A stretch of 64,000 nucleotides of DNA from an uncultured Clostridium sp. (GCA_948470025.1 CAOKNG010000003.1:74-64073); one strand, 5' to 3'. Positions 29,063-52,000 are shown, counted from the first letter of the stretch. Notes: generated by a model from the letters alone, not told the origin. Numbers and translations: made by a program.

Positions 29063-29261
29063 TAACATACCTCCGTAAAATAAATTTATCTTTATTCTAT
29101 ACTTATTCTAAGAAAAAAACAAGGGCTAAGGCACATAAAATGAGAATTATTACTGTAATGCAAAGTTTGCATGTAGAATTTTGTTATGGAATAGAAAATA
29201 AGCAATAGAGGTATTGACGAATCTTGTAAAAAGATGTATGATAATATAAATTAATACAAAA

Positions 29262-29357
29262 TAGAGTAGAAAATAAATCGTTAAGACCTAGTAGACGGGA
29301 AGTTGTTACTAGGGCAAGAAAAGTGATTTTCGCGTATTTGTTTTCGCATTCCGCTAT
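29262..29357 (+). ncRNA. THF (tetrahydrofolate) riboswitch
   Basis: AUAGAGUAG...UCGUUAAG...GACGGGAAG...GCAAG...UUUUCGCG...GCAUUCCGCUAU matches the conserved blocks of the folT-motif riboswitch as I recall them. It sits upstream of folT, after a TTGACG promoter at about 29214. Confidence 0.8.
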
Positions 29358-29440
29358 TGGGTTTGTTTTTGGAAGTAAACGAATAAGAATAGTTTCCTTC
29401 TTTCAATATGCGGAAAATGTATTGGAAGGAGGAATTTTTT

Positions 29441-29971
29441 ATGTCAAAATTAAAAAAAGTAATTTTATCTGGGATTTTATTAGCATTACTCATTGTCTTA
29501 AATCGATTTGTATCGATTAAAACACCACTTTTGGTGATTAGTTTTTCATTTGTACCACTTATAATGGCAGCTATTTGGTTAGGGCCAAAATACAGTACAT
29601 TAATTGCAGCATTAGGAGATTTTATTGGTGCGATTTTGTTCCCATTTGGAACGTATTTTCCAGGATTTACGGTAAGTGCAGGATTAGCAGGACTTATTTA
29701 TGGTTTGTTTTTACATCAAAAACAAGGAGAAGAAAGAACAACGAAACAATGGATTATAAGACTAATCATTAGTAATTTGCTAGTATTGGGACTTGTAGAA
29801 ATTTTTGTGGTTTCGATTTGGTTAAATATGATGTATGGAAAAGCATATTTGGTTGTGGTTTCTACAAGAGTATTAGCACAAGTGATTATGTTCCCAATAC
29901 GTCTTGTTACTATTTTCTTCTTAGAAAAAATAACAAGACCTATAGTAAATCGTTATTTATATGAAGAATAA
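29441..29971 (+). CDS. folT: ECF transporter S component, folate family
   Basis: RBS GGAAGGAGG precedes ATG 29441. Six-TM S-component-like sequence, in THF riboswitch and folC context. Confidence 0.8.
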   Translation: MSKLKKVILSGILLALLIVLNRFVSIKTPLLVISFSFVPLIMAAIWLGPKYSTLIAALGDFIGAILFPFGTYFPGFTVSAGLAGLIYGLFLHQKQGEERTTKQWIIRLIISNLLVLGLVEIFVVSIWLNMMYGKAYLVVVSTRVLAQVIMFPIRLVTIFFLEKITRPIVNRYLYEE

Positions 29972-30040: not shown

Positions 30041-31321
30041 ATGAAGACAAAGGAGTATTTTGCTAGTTTTTATAAAGGAACGAAAGGGCCAACACTAGAA
30101 GCAATTGAGTATTTTATGAAAAAGCTTAACCATCCAGAACAACAATTAAAGGTGGTTCATGTAGCAGGAACAAATGGAAAAGGTAGTATTTGTGAAATGC
30201 TGTCTACAGTATTAGAACAAGCAGGCTATCGAGTGGGCTTATTCATGTCGCCTCATGTGGTAAGGTTTTGTGAAAGAATTCGTGTCAACCATGAGGAAAT
30301 ACGTGAAGAAGAGCTAGAGGAATTAACCAACCAAATGAAGCCATTTGTGGAAGAATATAATTGCACACATGAAGTAAAAGTAACGTTATTCGAAATCGAA
30401 ACTGCAATTGTATTTTGCTATTTTGTACAAAAAAAATGCGATATTGCGGTAATAGAAACTGGTTTAGGTGGACTTGTGGATTGTACCAATGTGGTACATC
30501 CAATGGTATCTATGATTACCTCTATTGGTTATGACCATATGGATATTTTGGGAAATACCTTAGAAGAAATTGCCCTTCAAAAAGCAGGGATTATTAAGGA
30601 AAATTCAGAGACCATATTTATCAGCCAAGAGCCTAGTGTAAATGCAATCATAGAAGAAAACTGTAAGAAAAAAAATAATTTTCTACATGAAATAGGAAAA
30701 GAGGATTTTGGTAATTTATCTTATCAAAATGGATACCAAATATTTGATTACAAAGACCAAAAACAGGTTAAAATAAATTTAAAAGGAATGAAGCAAATTG
30801 GAAATGCAGGTATGGTATTAGAAGCCATCAAGATACTACAACATAAAGGATATACTATTCCAAAAGAAGCAGTAGAAAAAGGTTTAACAAACGTAATTCA
30901 TAAGGCTAGATTTGAGCAGATTTATGAAAATCCAACCATAATATTCGATGGTGGACACAATGAAGCAGCAATTCGTAATTTAAAAGAAACCATCCAACAA
31001 TACTATGAAAATGAAGAAAAAGTATATATTGTATCGATACTACAAACAAAAGACTACAAAACAGTCATCAAAGAATTAATGGAAGATACAAAATCCATCT
31101 TTATTTTCACAGATGGAACCAAAGAACAAGATGAAGTAAAATGCTATGTAAAAAAAGAAGAGTTACGAAAAGAAGCATTAAAATATAGAAACCAAAATGT
31201 ATATATAGATTCACTACAAAATGCTCTTACAAAATGTAAAAAAGACCACAAAGATAAAACTATTTTTGTAATAGGCAGTTTCTATACATACAAAGAAGTA
31301 ATCGAAAATTTGAAAAAATAA
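30041..31321 (+). CDS. folC: folylpolyglutamate synthase / dihydrofolate synthase
   Basis: HVAGTNGKGS P-loop, Mur-ligase fold, DGGHNEAA motif. Confidence 0.88.
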   Translation: MKTKEYFASFYKGTKGPTLEAIEYFMKKLNHPEQQLKVVHVAGTNGKGSICEMLSTVLEQAGYRVGLFMSPHVVRFCERIRVNHEEIREEELEELTNQMKPFVEEYNCTHEVKVTLFEIETAIVFCYFVQKKCDIAVIETGLGGLVDCTNVVHPMVSMITSIGYDHMDILGNTLEEIALQKAGIIKENSETIFISQEPSVNAIIEENCKKKNNFLHEIGKEDFGNLSYQNGYQIFDYKDQKQVKINLKGMKQIGNAGMVLEAIKILQHKGYTIPKEAVEKGLTNVIHKARFEQIYENPTIIFDGGHNEAAIRNLKETIQQYYENEEKVYIVSILQTKDYKTVIKELMEDTKSIFIFTDGTKEQDEVKCYVKKEELRKEALKYRNQNVYIDSLQNALTKCKKDHKDKTIFVIGSFYTYKEVIENLKK

Positions 31322-45719: not shown

Positions 45720-47729
45720 ATGGAAGATTTAGTAGAAAGTATTTTAGATTATGTAAGAAACGACTATACCGATTATGCCATTATGATTAATGGTGAATGG
45801 GGAAGTGGAAAAACCTATTTTTGGAACCATAAAATTAAAAACAAAATAGAATCCATGCAATTAAATGGAAAAAAATATACCACAATCTATATGTCTTTAT
45901 ATGGAATTTCAAACCTAGAAGAAATCAGTAAAAAAATATTCATTGAAACCACACAATTAATGGATAAAAACCTAAAACGATATATGGATGCCAACGAACA
46001 AACCACCATTCCAGAATATGCAAAAACTGGTTTAGATATGGCAAACTTTTTTGGTGTTACCCAAAATGGAGACCATATCGATTATGGAGAATTCTTTTCC
46101 ACCGATGATAAAGTATTATGCTTTGATGACCTAGAAAGAGCAAATGTAGACGTTATCGACATTCTAGGTTATATTAACAACTTTGTTGAACACGACCACA
46201 TAAAAACCATAATCATATGTAATGAAAAAGAACTATCCACCAAATTAAAAAGCAGTAATCTAGAAATGAAAACCTTTATTGCAACTTATCTATTAGACAA
46301 AGAAGGAGATTTAGACAAAGTAAGCGACAAACCAATGGTAGAAAAAATTCAAGACAAAATTGAATATGTATTTGATAAAGCAAACGATTATGAAAGAATC
46401 AAAGAAAAACTAATTGGTGAAACCTTTGAATATGCACCAGAATTTACGTATATCATCAATGGACTATTAATGCGATATGAAAACAATGAAGAACTCATTC
46501 GTTTTTTACGAGAAAATACAGGGCTTATTATTTCTACCTTCAATAAAAGTGGAACGAGAAACTTAAGAATTTTAAAACATGCGCTAAACGACTTTAAAAA
46601 GATATTTGATATGGTAAACAAATATTATCCAAACACCAATAACTTAGTACTACAAACCATGCTTATTTTTACCATAGCAGTATCCTTCGAAATAAAAGCA
46701 GGAAAAATTACCAAAGATAAATTTGTCAATATCAAAGATAACGAAGAATACAAATCCATTTTAGTATCTTCAAGAGTATTATTAACCGATAACCGTCAAT
46801 TCTATATTAAAGAATTTGATAACAACTATTACTACAACTTTAAATCGGAATATCGTTTCATTAAATTTATTGAAATTTATGTACGTACCAGAATTTTTGA
46901 TATGAAAGTATTTAAAGACAATATGGAGGTTATCATTAATACAGTGGATACTGATAAATTACCAGGGTATAAACGATTACTAACCGAAGAATATTGGAAA
47001 ATCAGTGATGACCAATTTGACCATGTAATCGATGAAGTATTAGAAGATGTAAAAGAGGGAAAAATACGATTAATCGATGTAATGAAATTATTTGCATATT
47101 TTAGCTATTTCATAAAAAAAGGGCTTATTCATTATGACATGAGAACCGTAAAAAGCATCTTCTTTAATGGAATGAATGTAGCCTCTCTAAATTCAGAATA
47201 CTGTGAAAATGTAGAAGAAGAATTAGCAGGAATAACCATTGGAGAAGTGAATGCAGATATAGAAGAAGTACTAAAATACTTTAATCAATTAAATGTTCAA
47301 TTAAAAGATAAAATGTATATCGAAAAAGCAGAAGAAATCTTCAAATGTATTCCAATGCGAATGGATTTATTCTATGAGAGATTTGACGAAGAATGTATGA
47401 ACATACCAATTTTTAAATACTATGATGTATTCCAAATGTTCCAAAGAATCTCGTGTGCAAGTAATGAAGACATTATGACGATTAAAGAAAAACTAGTAAA
47501 CCGTGTAAAACTATACCAAGCAGAAATTGAACCAGAAATGAAAAACATCAAACAACTAAAACAATTAATCGATGATTACACCAAAAATAAAGATGCAACC
47601 ATCAAAATTGTTATGCTAAGAGAATTCTCAAAAGACCTAGAATATATCCTAGACCAATACAAAGTCCCAATTCTTGGGGGAAAAAGAGATGACATACAAG
47701 TAGGTGTTCCTAAAGTACAACTAACATAA
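45720..47729 (+). CDS. KAP-family P-loop NTPase
   Basis: INGEWGSGKTYFW Walker A close to the N-terminus, CFDDLER Walker B-like motif, long helical C-terminal region. 669 aa. Confidence 0.75.
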   Translation: MEDLVESILDYVRNDYTDYAIMINGEWGSGKTYFWNHKIKNKIESMQLNGKKYTTIYMSLYGISNLEEISKKIFIETTQLMDKNLKRYMDANEQTTIPEYAKTGLDMANFFGVTQNGDHIDYGEFFSTDDKVLCFDDLERANVDVIDILGYINNFVEHDHIKTIIICNEKELSTKLKSSNLEMKTFIATYLLDKEGDLDKVSDKPMVEKIQDKIEYVFDKANDYERIKEKLIGETFEYAPEFTYIINGLLMRYENNEELIRFLRENTGLIISTFNKSGTRNLRILKHALNDFKKIFDMVNKYYPNTNNLVLQTMLIFTIAVSFEIKAGKITKDKFVNIKDNEEYKSILVSSRVLLTDNRQFYIKEFDNNYYYNFKSEYRFIKFIEIYVRTRIFDMKVFKDNMEVIINTVDTDKLPGYKRLLTEEYWKISDDQFDHVIDEVLEDVKEGKIRLIDVMKLFAYFSYFIKKGLIHYDMRTVKSIFFNGMNVASLNSEYCENVEEELAGITIGEVNADIEEVLKYFNQLNVQLKDKMYIEKAEEIFKCIPMRMDLFYERFDEECMNIPIFKYYDVFQMFQRISCASNEDIMTIKEKLVNRVKLYQAEIEPEMKNIKQLKQLIDDYTKNKDATIKIVMLREFSKDLEYILDQYKVPILGGKRDDIQVGVPKVQLT

Positions 47730-48723: not shown

Positions 48724-49923
48724 ATGAGAAAAGAAAGAAAATTAATAAAAACCGAAAAACCATGTAAACCACATGTAGGGGTCGATGCCCACATCGACCC
48801 GAAAGGAATCACATTAATAGCCCTCGTGATAACCATCATCGTGCTACTAATCCTAGCAACAATTACCATAAACCTAACAGTAGGACAAAGAGGAATCTTA
48901 ACAAGAGCACAGGAAGCAGGAAGAAATTATGAGGAGGCAGCAAAACAAGAAGATGAAGACTTAGCAAAATTTTTAGGAGAAGCAGATAATATCATAGCAG
49001 GAAATACAGGAAGTAGTAGTGGAGGAGCAACAGGAGGAAATGATTCTTCTACAGACAACAACTATACAATGGTAGATGGAGTACCAGTACCAAAAGGATT
49101 TGAACATACAGAAGGAACAAAGGAAACAGGATTTGTCATAAAAGATAATAGTGGAATCGAGACAGACGGAAATGAATTTGTGTGGGTGCCATGTAGTGAG
49201 GACGGAGCTAATGGAAGTATAAAATATGACCGATATGCATTTTCAAGAGATGGATGGGAATTTACACAGACAAAAGTTGGTGAAGAAATAAAGATGAATG
49301 CATATGGAACAGAATATAGTTTTACAGAAACAATATCAAGTATAGAAATAGAACTAAATAGTATTAAAAAATATGGTGGATTTTATATAGGAAGATATGA
49401 AGTAGGAATTGTAGGATATGATGAAGGAGTAAAAACAAGCAATAGCAATAAAGAAACAAATTGGACAGGATATAGTAATGGAAAAGCAGTCGTACAAAAA
49501 GATAAACAAGTATGGAATTATATCACAAGAGATATGGCAAAAACAGTAGCAGAAGGGATGTACACAAACAATAAGGCAGTAACTAGTCGATTATGTAGTA
49601 GTTATGCATGGGATACGGCGTTACAATTTATGGAGACAAAAAATGTAGAATATGCAACGAATAGTGAAGGAGATAATTATTCGGGAAATTTAAGACATAC
49701 AGGAATAGGAAGTACACCGAGAAATAATATATACGATATGGGAGGCAATGTATCAGAATGGACGACAGAGGTTTTTAGTGACGGAGACGGTCCTTGCACG
49801 GGGCGTGGCGGCAATTACGCGAGTGACGCAAGTACCTTTCCAGCAGGTGTTCGTGGCAGTCTTGAAGAGGCGAGCGCGTACGCCTTCATAGGGTTTCGTT
49901 CCACTTTATACGTAGGACTGTAA
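48724..49923 (+). CDS. prepilin-like N-terminus fused to an FGE-sulfatase / C-type-lectin-fold domain protein
   Basis: KGITLIALVITIIVLLILATI pilin-type hydrophobic N-terminus. C-terminal MGGNVSEWT...RGGNY...IGFR motifs of the FGE/DUF323 fold. Confidence 0.7.
   Translation: MRKERKLIKTEKPCKPHVGVDAHIDPKGITLIALVITIIVLLILATITINLTVGQRGILTRAQEAGRNYEEAAKQEDEDLAKFLGEADNIIAGNTGSSSGGATGGNDSSTDNNYTMVDGVPVPKGFEHTEGTKETGFVIKDNSGIETDGNEFVWVPCSEDGANGSIKYDRYAFSRDGWEFTQTKVGEEIKMNAYGTEYSFTETISSIEIELNSIKKYGGFYIGRYEVGIVGYDEGVKTSNSNKETNWTGYSNGKAVVQKDKQVWNYITRDMAKTVAEGMYTNNKAVTSRLCSSYAWDTALQFMETKNVEYATNSEGDNYSGNLRHTGIGSTPRNNIYDMGGNVSEWTTEVFSDGDGPCTGRGGNYASDASTFPAGVRGSLEEASAYAFIGFRSTLYVGL
48774..48800 (+). repeat. 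family 1 REP copy lying in frame inside the leader-coding part of CDS 48724
   Basis: TGTAGGGGTCGATGCCCACATCGACCC, identical core to 27294..27320. It translates as HVGVDAHIDP. Confidence 0.75.
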
Positions 49924-49972
49924 GCTGAAGAAACTACAACTACACCAAAAGAAGTGCAATAAAAATGATATA

Positions 49973-50006
49973 GAGTAGAATGAAGAAGTCATTTTACTCT
50001 ATTTTT
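49973..50006 (+). terminator. rho-independent terminator
   Basis: AGAGTAGAATGA-AGAAG-TCATTTTACTCT followed by ATTTTT. Confidence 0.7.
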
Positions 50007-50128
50007 AAAAACAAAAGAAAACAAGAGAAAACGTAAGAAAAAATATTGAAAAATAATTTTTACCGAAGTTTTGAACTAACAAAAACAAAATCAATTGAAA
50101 AAGGTTCTAAATTGACGAATAAGTCATT

Positions 50129-50156
50129 TTGAAAAATGGAAAAATTATGCTATAAT
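50129..50156 (+). promoter_or_regulatory. sigmaA-type promoter for the large ncRNA / oapA-like unit
   Basis: TTGAAA, 16-nt spacer, then extended -10 TGCTATAAT. Confidence 0.6.
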
Positions 50157-50162
50157 ACCAAT

Positions 50163-50770
50163 TGATGGTGCATTATTCTAGTAATATTGTCTATTACGAG
50201 GGTGGGGCTAAAAATCCACTAAAGGGCATATCGATGAAGTTTCTTGTAGGTGCGCGGTAACGCCCAGTTCTGTGTGCTTGCAGGGAGTAAAGATGATAGG
50301 GAAATATGTAATGGCATACATAGCATTTCCCCTGTTATCGCGGAGGCTTAAAAATAGTTTCGGCTGTTTTTAAGTAAAACCTATATAAAGTGCCAAGACA
50401 CAATATATAGAGTAGCCTGTCTTGAGTGGTAAATTTGGGATTAATCGAAACGGTTTTTTTACTACAATAGCTAAGTAATAAAAAAATTATGATTATGAAA
50501 TTATTATTGCAAAAAAGACTAGTAATAGAGCCAATATTTCAAGGAAAACTTCTAGAGTGTTTGTACTACATTTAAGTACATAAGAACTTAGGGATTAAGG
50601 TGTAGATTTTAGTGGCTGTCTGGTAATCTTTTTTTGATAAAGAGATTATTTTCTTGAAACGGAAACGGCTAAACAGTAATGTTTAGTAGAAAATAGAGAA
50701 ATTCGGCTAGACCTATACTACAAAGTTTACTTAAGTTCTTACCATCTAAATCAATTTTATGAAAAAACAA
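50163..50770 (+). ncRNA. large (~600 nt) structured non-coding RNA candidate, best guess OLE RNA
   Basis: An 860-bp stretch has no ORF of 60 aa or more on either strand. It is locally GC-richer and has many local hairpins (GGGAAAT..ATTTCCC, CTTAAAAA..TTTTTAAG, CAAGACA..TGTCTTG). A long-range helix pairs TAAGAACTTA (about 50581) with TAAGTTCTTA (about 50740). It has its own promoter and is directly followed by a 4-TM protein gene and a terminator. Confidence 0.5.
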
Positions 50771-50784
50771 GGAGAGAAAAAGAC

Positions 50785-51342
50785 TTGAAAGAAAACAAAG
50801 AAAAGAAGAGTAACGACAATATAAAATGGTTTATCGAAGTATTTATCATTACCTTTATATTATCGCTATTTTTTTCATACATATCAACAACCGCCATTAA
50901 TGATATTCCAATGATACCAGCAATTTTCATCTTGCTTGGGGTTATTTTAGTAGGTATTTTATTTGATATTGTAGGAGTAGCGGTAACTGTAGCAGGAGAA
51001 GAAGAATTCCATGCAAGAGCAAGTAAAAAAATTCCAGGAGCCAAAACAGCAGTAAAACTGATTCGAAATTCTTCCATTGTGGCCAATATTTGTGCAGACG
51101 TTATTGGCGATATTTGTGGGGTATTAAGTGGAGCCATTAGCGCGATTATTGCCATGAAAATAACTGAGAGTTATCAAATATCTTTTCCAATTCAATTTTT
51201 GATTAGTGCACTAGTTGCATCATTAACAGTTGGAGGAAAAGCGTTAGGAAAAGGATTGGCAAAGAAGAAAAGTGGTACGATTGTATGGATTGTATCGAGA
51301 CTCATGAAGGTAGTTTGCCATGAAAAAAAGGAAAAACAGTAA
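50785..51342 (+). CDS. small 4-TM membrane protein, OapA-like (OLE-associated protein A) candidate
   Basis: 185 aa, four predicted TM helices, D-x3-D (ADVIGDICG) in TM3. Lies immediately 3' of the ncRNA candidate. TTG start after AAGGAGAG. Confidence 0.5.
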   Translation: MKENKEKKSNDNIKWFIEVFIITFILSLFFSYISTTAINDIPMIPAIFILLGVILVGILFDIVGVAVTVAGEEEFHARASKKIPGAKTAVKLIRNSSIVANICADVIGDICGVLSGAISAIIAMKITESYQISFPIQFLISALVASLTVGGKALGKGLAKKKSGTIVWIVSRLMKVVCHEKKEKQ

Positions 51343-51420
51343 GAGAGAAATAAAACAATGTATTTGCAAAAAGCATGAAATGTAATATAAACTGGCTCTA
51401 ACTCAAAAGAGAGTAAAATA

Positions 51421-51457
51421 ACCTTGTACATTACACAATTAGTATGTACAGGGTTTT
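51421..51457 (+). terminator. rho-independent terminator
   Basis: CCTTGTACAT...ATGTACAGGG followed by TTTT. Confidence 0.7.
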
Positions 51458-51556
51458 GATTTTGAATCCTTTTTTAGTTATCTAAATTTCTAATAGTAGT
51501 ATGTTCAAATATTACAATATGTGATAGAATTAGTAAAAATCAAATAGAAGGAGAAA

Positions 51557-52000
51557 ATGATGAAAATAGAAATAAGTAACAAAAATGAAAATTATCAATA
51601 TATTAGTAGAGAATTACATAGATATAACAATGAAAATGGAAATACACCATATTTTAAAAATAGAAACGATGAACCAAAAGAAAAAGAAGTTTTTGGTTGC
51701 TATGCATTTGAAAATGGAAAAATTATAGGTGGAATGGTAGTATATGAAGTTTTACAGTGGTTACAGATACAAAAAACATTTATTAGCAAAGAATGTAGAG
51801 GAAAAAATGTTGGAACGGATATTTTTAAGAAATTAGAAGAATATGCAAAACAAAAAGAATTAGTTGGAATTCGAGTAGAAACGCTTGATTTTCAAGCAAA
51901 AGGTTTTTATGAAAAGATGGGTTGTGAATTATTGTATGAATTAAAAGACTGCCCAAGAGGAAACATAGAGTATGGGTTTGTAAAGTATATAGAAAGTTAG
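51557..52000 (+). CDS. GNAT-family N-acetyltransferase
   Basis: The size and the segment ISKECRGKNVGTDIFKKLEEYAKQ resemble the acetyl-CoA binding motif (Q/RxxGxG/A). Confidence 0.6.
   Translation: MMKIEISNKNENYQYISRELHRYNNENGNTPYFKNRNDEPKEKEVFGCYAFENGKIIGGMVVYEVLQWLQIQKTFISKECRGKNVGTDIFKKLEEYAKQKELVGIRVETLDFQAKGFYEKMGCELLYELKDCPRGNIEYGFVKYIES

Follow-up and report, generated by a model that had tools for sequence, protein, structure and literature searches.

Among conserved bacterial RNAs that have yet to be given a settled biochemical function, OLE is one of the largest. The OLE RNA of Halalkalibacterium halodurans is one of the organism's most abundant RNAs and forms the OLE ribonucleoprotein (RNP) complex with the proteins OapA, OapB (YbzG) and OapC (YbxF) (PMC12265935). 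Cryo-electron microscopy has suggested that the RNA dimerizes and that the P3 region of the dimer crosses the bilayer. OLE hits have been sorted by covariance model score into full-length RNAs (at least 390 bits), variant 1 (310 to 390 bits) and variant 2 (235 to 310 bits) by Fernando and Breaker (2024, mSphere; PMC11332333). Variant 1 RNAs have shorter P7, P8 and P9 stems and often have no OapB site at the P13 tip, and they are commonest in TANB77, an order of uncultured, reduced-genome gut Clostridia largely without OapB and OapC (PMC11332333). Here we analyze a 64,000-nucleotide stretch of DNA (hereafter, the window) from an uncultured Clostridium sp. (GCA_948470025.1, CAOKNG010000003.1:74-64073), wherein positions 50129 to 51457 almost certainly carry a genuine, expressed OLE RNA and its oapA gene as a self-contained cassette of an uncultured gut Clostridia bacterium with a low guanine-plus-cytosine (GC) content. 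The OLE family, its pairing with oapA and the reduced form of gut Clostridia are all published, and the locus is not a new kind of element.

The window locus resembles that of H. halodurans in that its RNA belongs to the same Rfam family (RF01071), is followed immediately by oapA, retains the GNRA loop of P14.1 as well as the strands of the kink-turn (k-turn), and is abundant and discrete, and in that its protein has four transmembrane (TM) helices and a DxxxD motif. The two differ in layout, wherein the H. halodurans pair lies in a long polycistronic operon with isoprenoid and DNA repair genes, whereas the window pair has its own conserved promoter and terminator. They also differ in the RNA itself, as the window OLE RNA has a short P7 and no P13 OapB site, and in host, as the window comes from an uncultured anaerobe of the gut whose GC content is 31%.

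The identity of the RNA was examined by a cmscan search of the whole window against Rfam 15. An OLE match (RF01071) was obtained at 50149..50761 on the plus strand with a score of 350.6 bits (gathering score 50, E = 2e-99). The match is full-length, spanning model positions 1 to 616 of 616, and its first 14 nucleotides overlap the −10 box of the promoter. A preliminary description, made from the sequence alone, had proposed an OLE/OapA unit and had cautioned that another large class of noncoding RNA would fit equally well. Its proposal is borne out by the Rfam score. Its caution, and nothing else, speaks for a different class such as ROOL, GOLLD or raiA, or for a decaying relic, a reading to which we assign almost no probability. 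Neither these families nor any other plausible Rfam family apart from OLE matched in 49900 to 51500 at E values up to 10, and on this ground a different class was rejected. The compensatory changes, conserved promoter and accumulation in vivo given below speak against decay.

The RNA and its substructures are located as follows.

50163..50746, plus strand: OLE RNA of about 584 nucleotides, from the Rfam match, fold energy, clade covariation and RNA contigs

50164..50169 with 50741..50746, plus strand: probable closing helix P1, wherein GAUGGU pairs with ACCAUC

50230..50295, plus strand: P5 hairpin with flanking strands AUCGAUGAAG (50230 to 50239) and GUAAAGAU (about 50286 to 50295), from comparison with the Rfam consensus

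50346..50373, plus strand: shortened P7 hairpin, 17 nucleotides below the Rfam consensus hairpin (model positions 198 to 243)

50580..50740, plus strand: 3′ domain closed by a long-range helix (50580 to 50590 with 50730 to 50740), from the Rfam alignment and clade covariation

50625..50647, plus strand: P13-equivalent hairpin with a perfect A/U-rich stem and a UUGAU loop, with neither a GNRA tetraloop nor a single-nucleotide bulge

50668..50687, plus strand: P14.1 hairpin with a GUAA (GNRA) tetraloop at 50676 to 50679, from the Rfam alignment, with four pairs showing compensatory changes

The predicted fold of nucleotides 50163 to 50746 has a free energy of −161.6 kcal/mol, compared with −127.2 ± 6.1 kcal/mol for shuffled sequences (z = −5.6). 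The long-range helix of the preliminary description also exists, with TAAGAACTTA at 50581 pairing with TAAGTTCTTA, although the latter lies at 50732 and not near 50740 as had been reported. It forms the outer helix in the 3′ domain of OLE, and in the clade examined below its 11 pairs are 100% paired, with compensatory changes at four of them. The strands flanking P5 could adopt the k-turn to which OapC/YbxF binds in H. halodurans. The AUC/GAU pairing of the putative C helix is kept, and a U-A pair replaces a U-G pair relative to the Rfam consensus and the published description of the k-turn (PMC9723947). The P14.1 equivalent of H. halodurans is a weak secondary OapB site, and the primary OapB docking site in P13 is a bulged stem with a GNRA loop (PMC7936274).

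Conservation of this structure was assessed in an alignment, A1, of the window OLE RNA and 25 relatives (26 sequences, hereafter the clade). The consensus fold of A1 has the OLE architecture, together with long-range helices that are unpaired in the Rfam structure line, and 42 of its 149 pairs show compensatory changes. An explicit structure of 161 pairs in 25 helices was compared with shuffles and with slid controls, and the following values, which are to be read with the fact that the structure was derived from the same A1 alignment, were obtained.

Cells paired: 98.4% observed; 92.7% in shuffles (0 of 500 reach the observed value); 37 to 47% in slid controls

Pairs changed on both sides: 45 of 161 observed; 30.4 ± 1.9 in shuffles (0 of 500); 6 to 11 in slid controls

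Covariation score: 0.245 observed; 0.136 ± 0.004 in shuffles (0 of 500); 0.043 to 0.068 in slid controls

The transcription unit is bounded by the following signals.

49970..50002, plus strand: terminator-like hairpin of 14 bp with a U run after the upstream gene (−15.5 kcal/mol, z = −5.4)

50129..50156, plus strand: sigma-A type promoter, with −35 box TTGAAA at 50129 to 50134, a 16-nucleotide spacer and −10 box TATAAT at 50151 to 50156

51420..51463, plus strand: terminator-like hairpin formed by AACCUUGUACAU and AUGUACAGGGUU, with a U-rich tail (12 bp, −17.1 kcal/mol, z = −3.4)

The promoter was already noted in the preliminary description as a good sigma-A site, and it is indeed the best site in 49800 to 51700, with 11 of 12 consensus matches and an extended −10 element, TGcTATAAT, at 50148 to 50156 (TG at 50148 to 50149). 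Its position suggests that transcription starts near 50162 to 50165. In all 25 relatives, a −35 box (TTGAnA or TTTACA) and TGnTATAAT are found at a constant distance from the conserved sequence GGTGCATTATTCTAGT, whereas the DNA 5′ of the −35 box is unrelated among them. Because the boxes are kept at fixed spacing while the flanking upstream DNA is not, this phylogenetic footprint identifies a dedicated OLE promoter.

Upstream of this promoter, none of 200 shuffled sequences folds as well as the hairpin at 49970..50002, which ends the upstream gene and insulates the OLE promoter from read-through. A consensus scan revealed no plus-strand promoter-like site between OLE and oapA, and no canonical terminator follows OLE. 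The hairpin proper at the end of the unit occupies 51420 to 51455. To call it a strong terminator at 51421..51457, as had been done, is an overstatement, as a strict consensus scan did not flag it. In about half of 19 relatives, a hairpin with a T-rich tail lies at most about 20 nucleotides from the oapA stop codon, most clearly in L005 to L007, L009 to L012 and L015. Given the footprinted promoter, the lack of an internal promoter and the hairpins at both ends, the unit consists of promoter, OLE, oapA and terminator. The conserved promoter would drive a transcript from about 50163 that includes OLE RNA (about 584 nucleotides) and then oapA, and that would end at the hairpin terminator near 51455.

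Evidence for the RNA itself comes from public sequencing runs of mouse or rat gut samples that contain this sequence, most of them from mouse. Two runs are declared metatranscriptomes (X15 and X24), two are of a kind guessed to be RNA (X5 and X6) and two are of unrecorded kind (X9 and X10). In all six, contigs cover only about 50199..50742, and none was found on oapA or on the upstream gene. X5 yields one contig of 544 nucleotides with 100% identity and a depth of 45, which verifies the OLE span from 50199 to 50742 independently and makes an assembly chimera at the locus unlikely, and X10 yields one contig covering 50209..50742. In the metagenome run X1 (of a kind guessed to be DNA), all of the 2.2-kb stretch is covered, although the depth is low. 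Because the contigs of the six runs cover the OLE span alone whereas X1 covers everything, OLE accumulates as a discrete and abundant RNA, far above the oapA message, with its 3′ end near 50742 to 50746. Position 50742, where the contigs commonly end on their 3′ side, falls within the 3′ strand of P1 (ACCAUC). These data are contigs and not raw reads, and the RNA ends are therefore approximate. A processing site at 50199 was considered and rejected, since this position coincides with the edge of a 31-nucleotide block (50198 to 50228) that is invariant in 26 of 26 clade members and equals one assembler word. The contig start at 50199 is probably a break in the assembly graph made by co-resident relatives.

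The missing internal promoter and terminator, the latter making co-transcription with oapA probable, are also what would be expected if the region were mainly a long structured 5′ leader acting as a cis-regulator of oapA mRNA, and not a stable trans-acting RNA. We consider this very unlikely, because the RNA contigs of several independent studies stop at 50742, before the oapA ribosome-binding site, and because a covarying structure of about 600 nucleotides that is common across Bacillota is a known RNP component (PMC12265935). The oapA portion of the message is much rarer than OLE, likely because the highly structured OLE RNA survives processing and 3′ trimming.

The preliminary description had placed the longest stretch of the window with no open reading frame (ORF) of at least 60 codons on either strand at 49924..50784. 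It is the longest such run, yet its end is 50756, since an antisense ORF starts at 50757. The corrected run is 833 nucleotides, and the next longest are 649 and 508 nucleotides. The GC enrichment reported for the RNA relative to its surroundings is real but modest, with 34% for OLE (39% in its 5′ half) compared with 31.4% for the whole window, 29.7% for the other ORF-free runs and 24% for the upstream spacer.

The gene that follows the RNA is defined by two features.

50770..50776, plus strand: ribosome-binding site AGGAGAG, 8 nucleotides before the TTG start, read from the sequence

50785..51342, plus strand: oapA, encoding 185 amino acids from a TTG start codon, assigned by homology, position, DxxxD motif and fold

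The start codon lies 39 nucleotides after the 3′ strand of P1. As the preliminary description stated, the ORF encodes a 185-amino acid protein with four long hydrophobic helices and a D-x3-D motif, which is D105-V-I-G-D109 (nucleotides 51097 to 51111) within TM3. An AlphaFold 2 model (pLDDT 81.8, pTM 0.70) has long helices at residues 9 to 38, 43 to 69, 96 to 130 and 136 to 161. A homology search returned 3,972 relatives, almost all of them unnamed, and the gene-position index has no entry for the exact window protein. There is no OapA family model in Pfam or NCBIfam and a direct family scan was empty, and therefore membership was tested by synteny, motif and fold.

Among 27 loci with close relatives of the protein, all from Clostridia metagenome-assembled genomes (MAGs) of animal guts, 25 have an Rfam OLE match immediately before the oapA homolog. 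In one of the two exceptions upstream sequence is lacking, and the second is a Christensenellaceae homolog with 37% identity. A wider genome scan with the invariant OLE 19-mer AAAGGGCACATCGATGAAG yielded 120 loci. The families represented include Bacillaceae, Paenibacillaceae, Alicyclobacillaceae and Clostridiaceae, and H. halodurans itself is not among the loci; a fixed-spacing OLE pattern gave no match in the genome scan. When the window protein was used as a tblastn query, a same-strand homolog was found 480 to 912 nucleotides after the 19-mer in about 103 loci, out of some 108 in which there was room for one (30 to 63% identity, E = 1e-24 to 1e-57). Residues D105, G108, D109, D61, G64, S115, G116, T148, K152 and K156 are invariant in 94 of 94 aligned proteins, and the window protein carries all of them. 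The downstream protein had earlier been called OapA-like, and the recurrence of the homolog after OLE together with the invariance of DxxxD upholds that view. We conclude from position, homology, motif and fold that the 185-amino acid protein is OapA.

As a separate observation, the Christensenellaceae homolog (L026:4001-4513) lies in an 8.5-kb locus, with 4 kb on each side, in which the OLE model reaches its gathering score nowhere. Perhaps this OapA-like gene stands apart from ole; alternatively, its locus may hold a divergent OLE missed by the model.

The fold links OapA to the CNNM/CorB/MpfA Mg2+ transporters. Foldseek comparison of the model returned the archaeal CNNM protein MtCorB (7M1T/7M1U) as the top three matches in the Protein Data Bank (PDB), with a probability of 1.00, and Pfam CNNM (PF01595) matches residues 50 to 177 weakly (E = 0.021). 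MtCorB is also the relative reported for H. halodurans OapA by Fernando and Breaker (PMC11332333). OapA differs from CNNM proteins in having four TM helices instead of three, in carrying the DxxxD motif, which is absent from CNNM domains, in having no CBS or CorC domains and in being tied to an RNA partner. A marginal similarity to LolE in a PDB sequence search (E of about 0.01) was judged spurious and attributed to hydrophobic segments.

By analogy with H. halodurans, where cooperative binding has been reported, this CNNM-like protein with four TM helices and an essential DxxxD motif would bind OLE RNA as a dimer and could hold the RNA at or across the cell membrane. The resulting RNP may help the cell under stress, for example from short-chain alcohols, cold, too much Mg2+ or a poor carbon source. 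Binding, membrane localization and stress function are taken here from the literature; the RNA and protein families, the structure, the promoter and the accumulation come from the present analysis.

The form of OLE RNA present in the window was assessed by comparison with other members of the family. On the Rfam scale, canonical OLE RNAs from named species score 457 to 557 bits (n = 17), including the low-GC Clostridium RNAs L064, L109, L111 and L141 at 515 to 557 bits, whereas members of the clade score 283 to 363 bits. The P13 segment that the AGUGG and AANGGAAAC anchors enclose has a length of exactly 42 nucleotides in all 16 canonical OLE RNAs compared, in which it forms a bulged stem with a GNRA loop. 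In the clade this segment is 37 to 101 nucleotides, and none of the 26 members has the GNRA loop or the bulge. The P7 region (GGAG to AACC) is 32 nucleotides in the window, with a median of 30 in the clade and 49 in canonical RNAs. Anchor-based helix lengths are noisy for canonical OLE RNAs, for which several anchors failed, and only the P7 and P13 comparisons were relied on. The window RNA shares with variant 1 OLE RNAs a short P7, the loss of the OapB nucleotides at the P13 tip and a gut host known only from MAGs, and its score on the Rfam scale falls in an intermediate band. On the loss of the P13 site, the most diagnostic feature, and leaving the host order aside, the sequence fits the published reduced variant 1. 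OLE hosts are Bacillota, typically anaerobic or extremophilic, and the gut Clostridia MAG relatives and the rodent gut runs point to a host within Bacillota. A Pfam scan of 28 window proteins, within the 64 kb of the genome that the window covers, gave no L7Ae-like or KOW-like protein.

Nothing speaks against the locus belonging to the OLE/OapA system, but several caveats apply. Unlike variant 1 RNAs, the window copy has P8 (29 versus 29 nucleotides in canonical RNAs) and P9–P11 (101 versus about 97 nucleotides) of normal, unshortened length, and the score limits of variant 1 were set with the covariance model of Fernando and Breaker and not on the Rfam scale on which the copy scores 350.6 bits. 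Contig depth is a poor measure of expression, four of the six runs (X5, X6, X9 and X10) are RNA by guess or of unrecorded kind, and the RNA contigs start at 50199, the OLE 5′ end near 50163 being a predicted one. Function, moreover, is extrapolated from one distant aerobic alkaliphile.

The unshortened P8 and P9–P11 also agree with another reading, in which the OLE RNP is canonical and full-length, with OapB, OapC and all helices still in use, and in which the lower score reflects only a very low GC content. The same holds for a length of 613 nucleotides, like the canonical median of 608, and for the retained P14.1 GNRA loop and k-turn strands. This explanation is nevertheless unlikely. The P13 OapB site occurs in 16 of 16 canonical RNAs, low-GC Clostridium included, and in 0 of 26 clade members, and the score is 100 to 200 bits under those of the low-GC Clostridium RNAs (515 to 557 bits). 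We therefore retain variant 1 as the better description of the window copy.

Within the clade, the P7 and P13 arms vary greatly. L010, L012 and L013 carry an insertion of about 65 nucleotides in P7 (A1 columns 203 to 298), and in the sister subclade L017 to L025 the P13 arm grows to 65 to 101 nucleotides of branched, A/U-rich hairpins (A1 columns 555 to 634). A sister subclade also lacks about 37 nucleotides of P9–P11. As judged from the aligned sequences, the P7 and P13 positions tolerate large changes.

The surroundings of the cassette differ from those of ole in other species. The isoprenoid and xseAB genes that are typical neighbors elsewhere are absent, as the preliminary description correctly stated, and spoVT is the conserved upstream neighbor in the clade. 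The gene order in the closest relatives is comFC-like, KAP-family NTPase, spoVT, OLE and oapA, and links of ole to sporulation and cell wall genes have been noted earlier (PMC12265935). The genes downstream of oapA in the window, a GNAT acetyltransferase and murI, are shared with none of the relatives.

Further observations concern the genes upstream. In relatives L003 to L008 and L014, spoVT lies about 200 to 400 nucleotides from OLE. The window, and this genome only, has an extra 399-amino acid gene between them (48724-49923, plus strand), encoding a pilin-like hydrophobic N terminus and a C-terminal FGE-sulfatase (SUMF1-like) domain, which looks like a lineage-specific insertion. The KAP-family P-loop NTPase (669 amino acids, 45720-47729, plus strand), which has the comFC-like gene on one side and spoVT on the other, shows 99% identity in L003 and L004, whereas oapA of those loci is only 91% identical, and conservation is thus uneven across the locus.

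Elsewhere in the window, several genes are split across frames, at 42711-44931 (RecD2/YrrC helicase, three to four pieces), 55710-57570 (NuoF/HydB-like, 207 and 393 amino acids) and 57670-59422 ([FeFe]-hydrogenase-like, 111 and 432 amino acids), which suggests assembly indel errors or gene decay. A tetrahydrofolate (THF) riboswitch at 29260-29358 on the plus strand (67.1 bits, gathering score 36) lies directly upstream of ORFs 29408-29971 and 30041-31321. An MNT-like nucleotidyltransferase (15437-15745) and a HepT-like RNase (15729-16088), both on the plus strand, have the arrangement of a type VII toxin-antitoxin system. A second nucleotidyltransferase ORF (61077-61424, plus strand) overlaps ORF 61414-61806.

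Outside the window, oapA of five sister species (L020 to L024) carries a shared one-nucleotide insertion at N-CGG-A, between the segments encoding TM3 and TM4. The frameshifted genes are located as follows.

L020:986-1520, frameshifted oapA

L021:4001-4526, frameshifted oapA

L022:2514-3048, frameshifted oapA

L023:4001-4526, frameshifted oapA

L024:4001-4532, frameshifted oapA

Across the 50 codons that follow the insertion, codon differences among the five species read in the +1 frame are 121 synonymous and 54 nonsynonymous, compared with 2 synonymous and 96 nonsynonymous when the same DNA is read in the 0 frame. Because the differences in the +1 frame fall mainly at third positions, the part after the insertion is under purifying selection as protein. 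A TAA codon shuts the +1 frame immediately before the CGG site. The long ORFs of those loci contain 11,316 codons, of which 6 are CGG, and about five of these six are the frameshift site itself. Contigs of two independent runs reproduce the sequence at the insertion without an indel. From these sequence patterns, the site is a candidate for programmed +1 ribosomal frameshifting at a hungry CGG codon, which would be needed for full-length OapA. No mention of a frameshift in oapA was found in the literature searched.

A broader proposal joins these observations, namely that the OLE RNP of this clade is a pared-down, autonomously transcribed, OapB-independent module in which P13 has become a hypervariable arm, and that a sister lineage adds a programmed +1 frameshift in oapA. 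We put this forward tentatively, as a possibility that falls well short of probable, and its OapB-independent part restates a published suggestion.

The window locus offers a clean example of an OLE cassette, in which the promoter is mapped, a terminator lies on either side and expression in the mouse gut is directly evident. Variants from nature that lack the OapB site and tolerate large changes in P7 and P13 reveal which parts of the RNA are dispensable, and they could guide the design of minimal constructs. If the broader proposal is true, P13 has been freed from protein binding and is now a hypervariable, A/U-rich arm of 37 to 101 nucleotides. The programmed frameshift, if real, would tie the amount of the OLE membrane anchor to translation conditions and so would be a new regulatory handle on this RNP.

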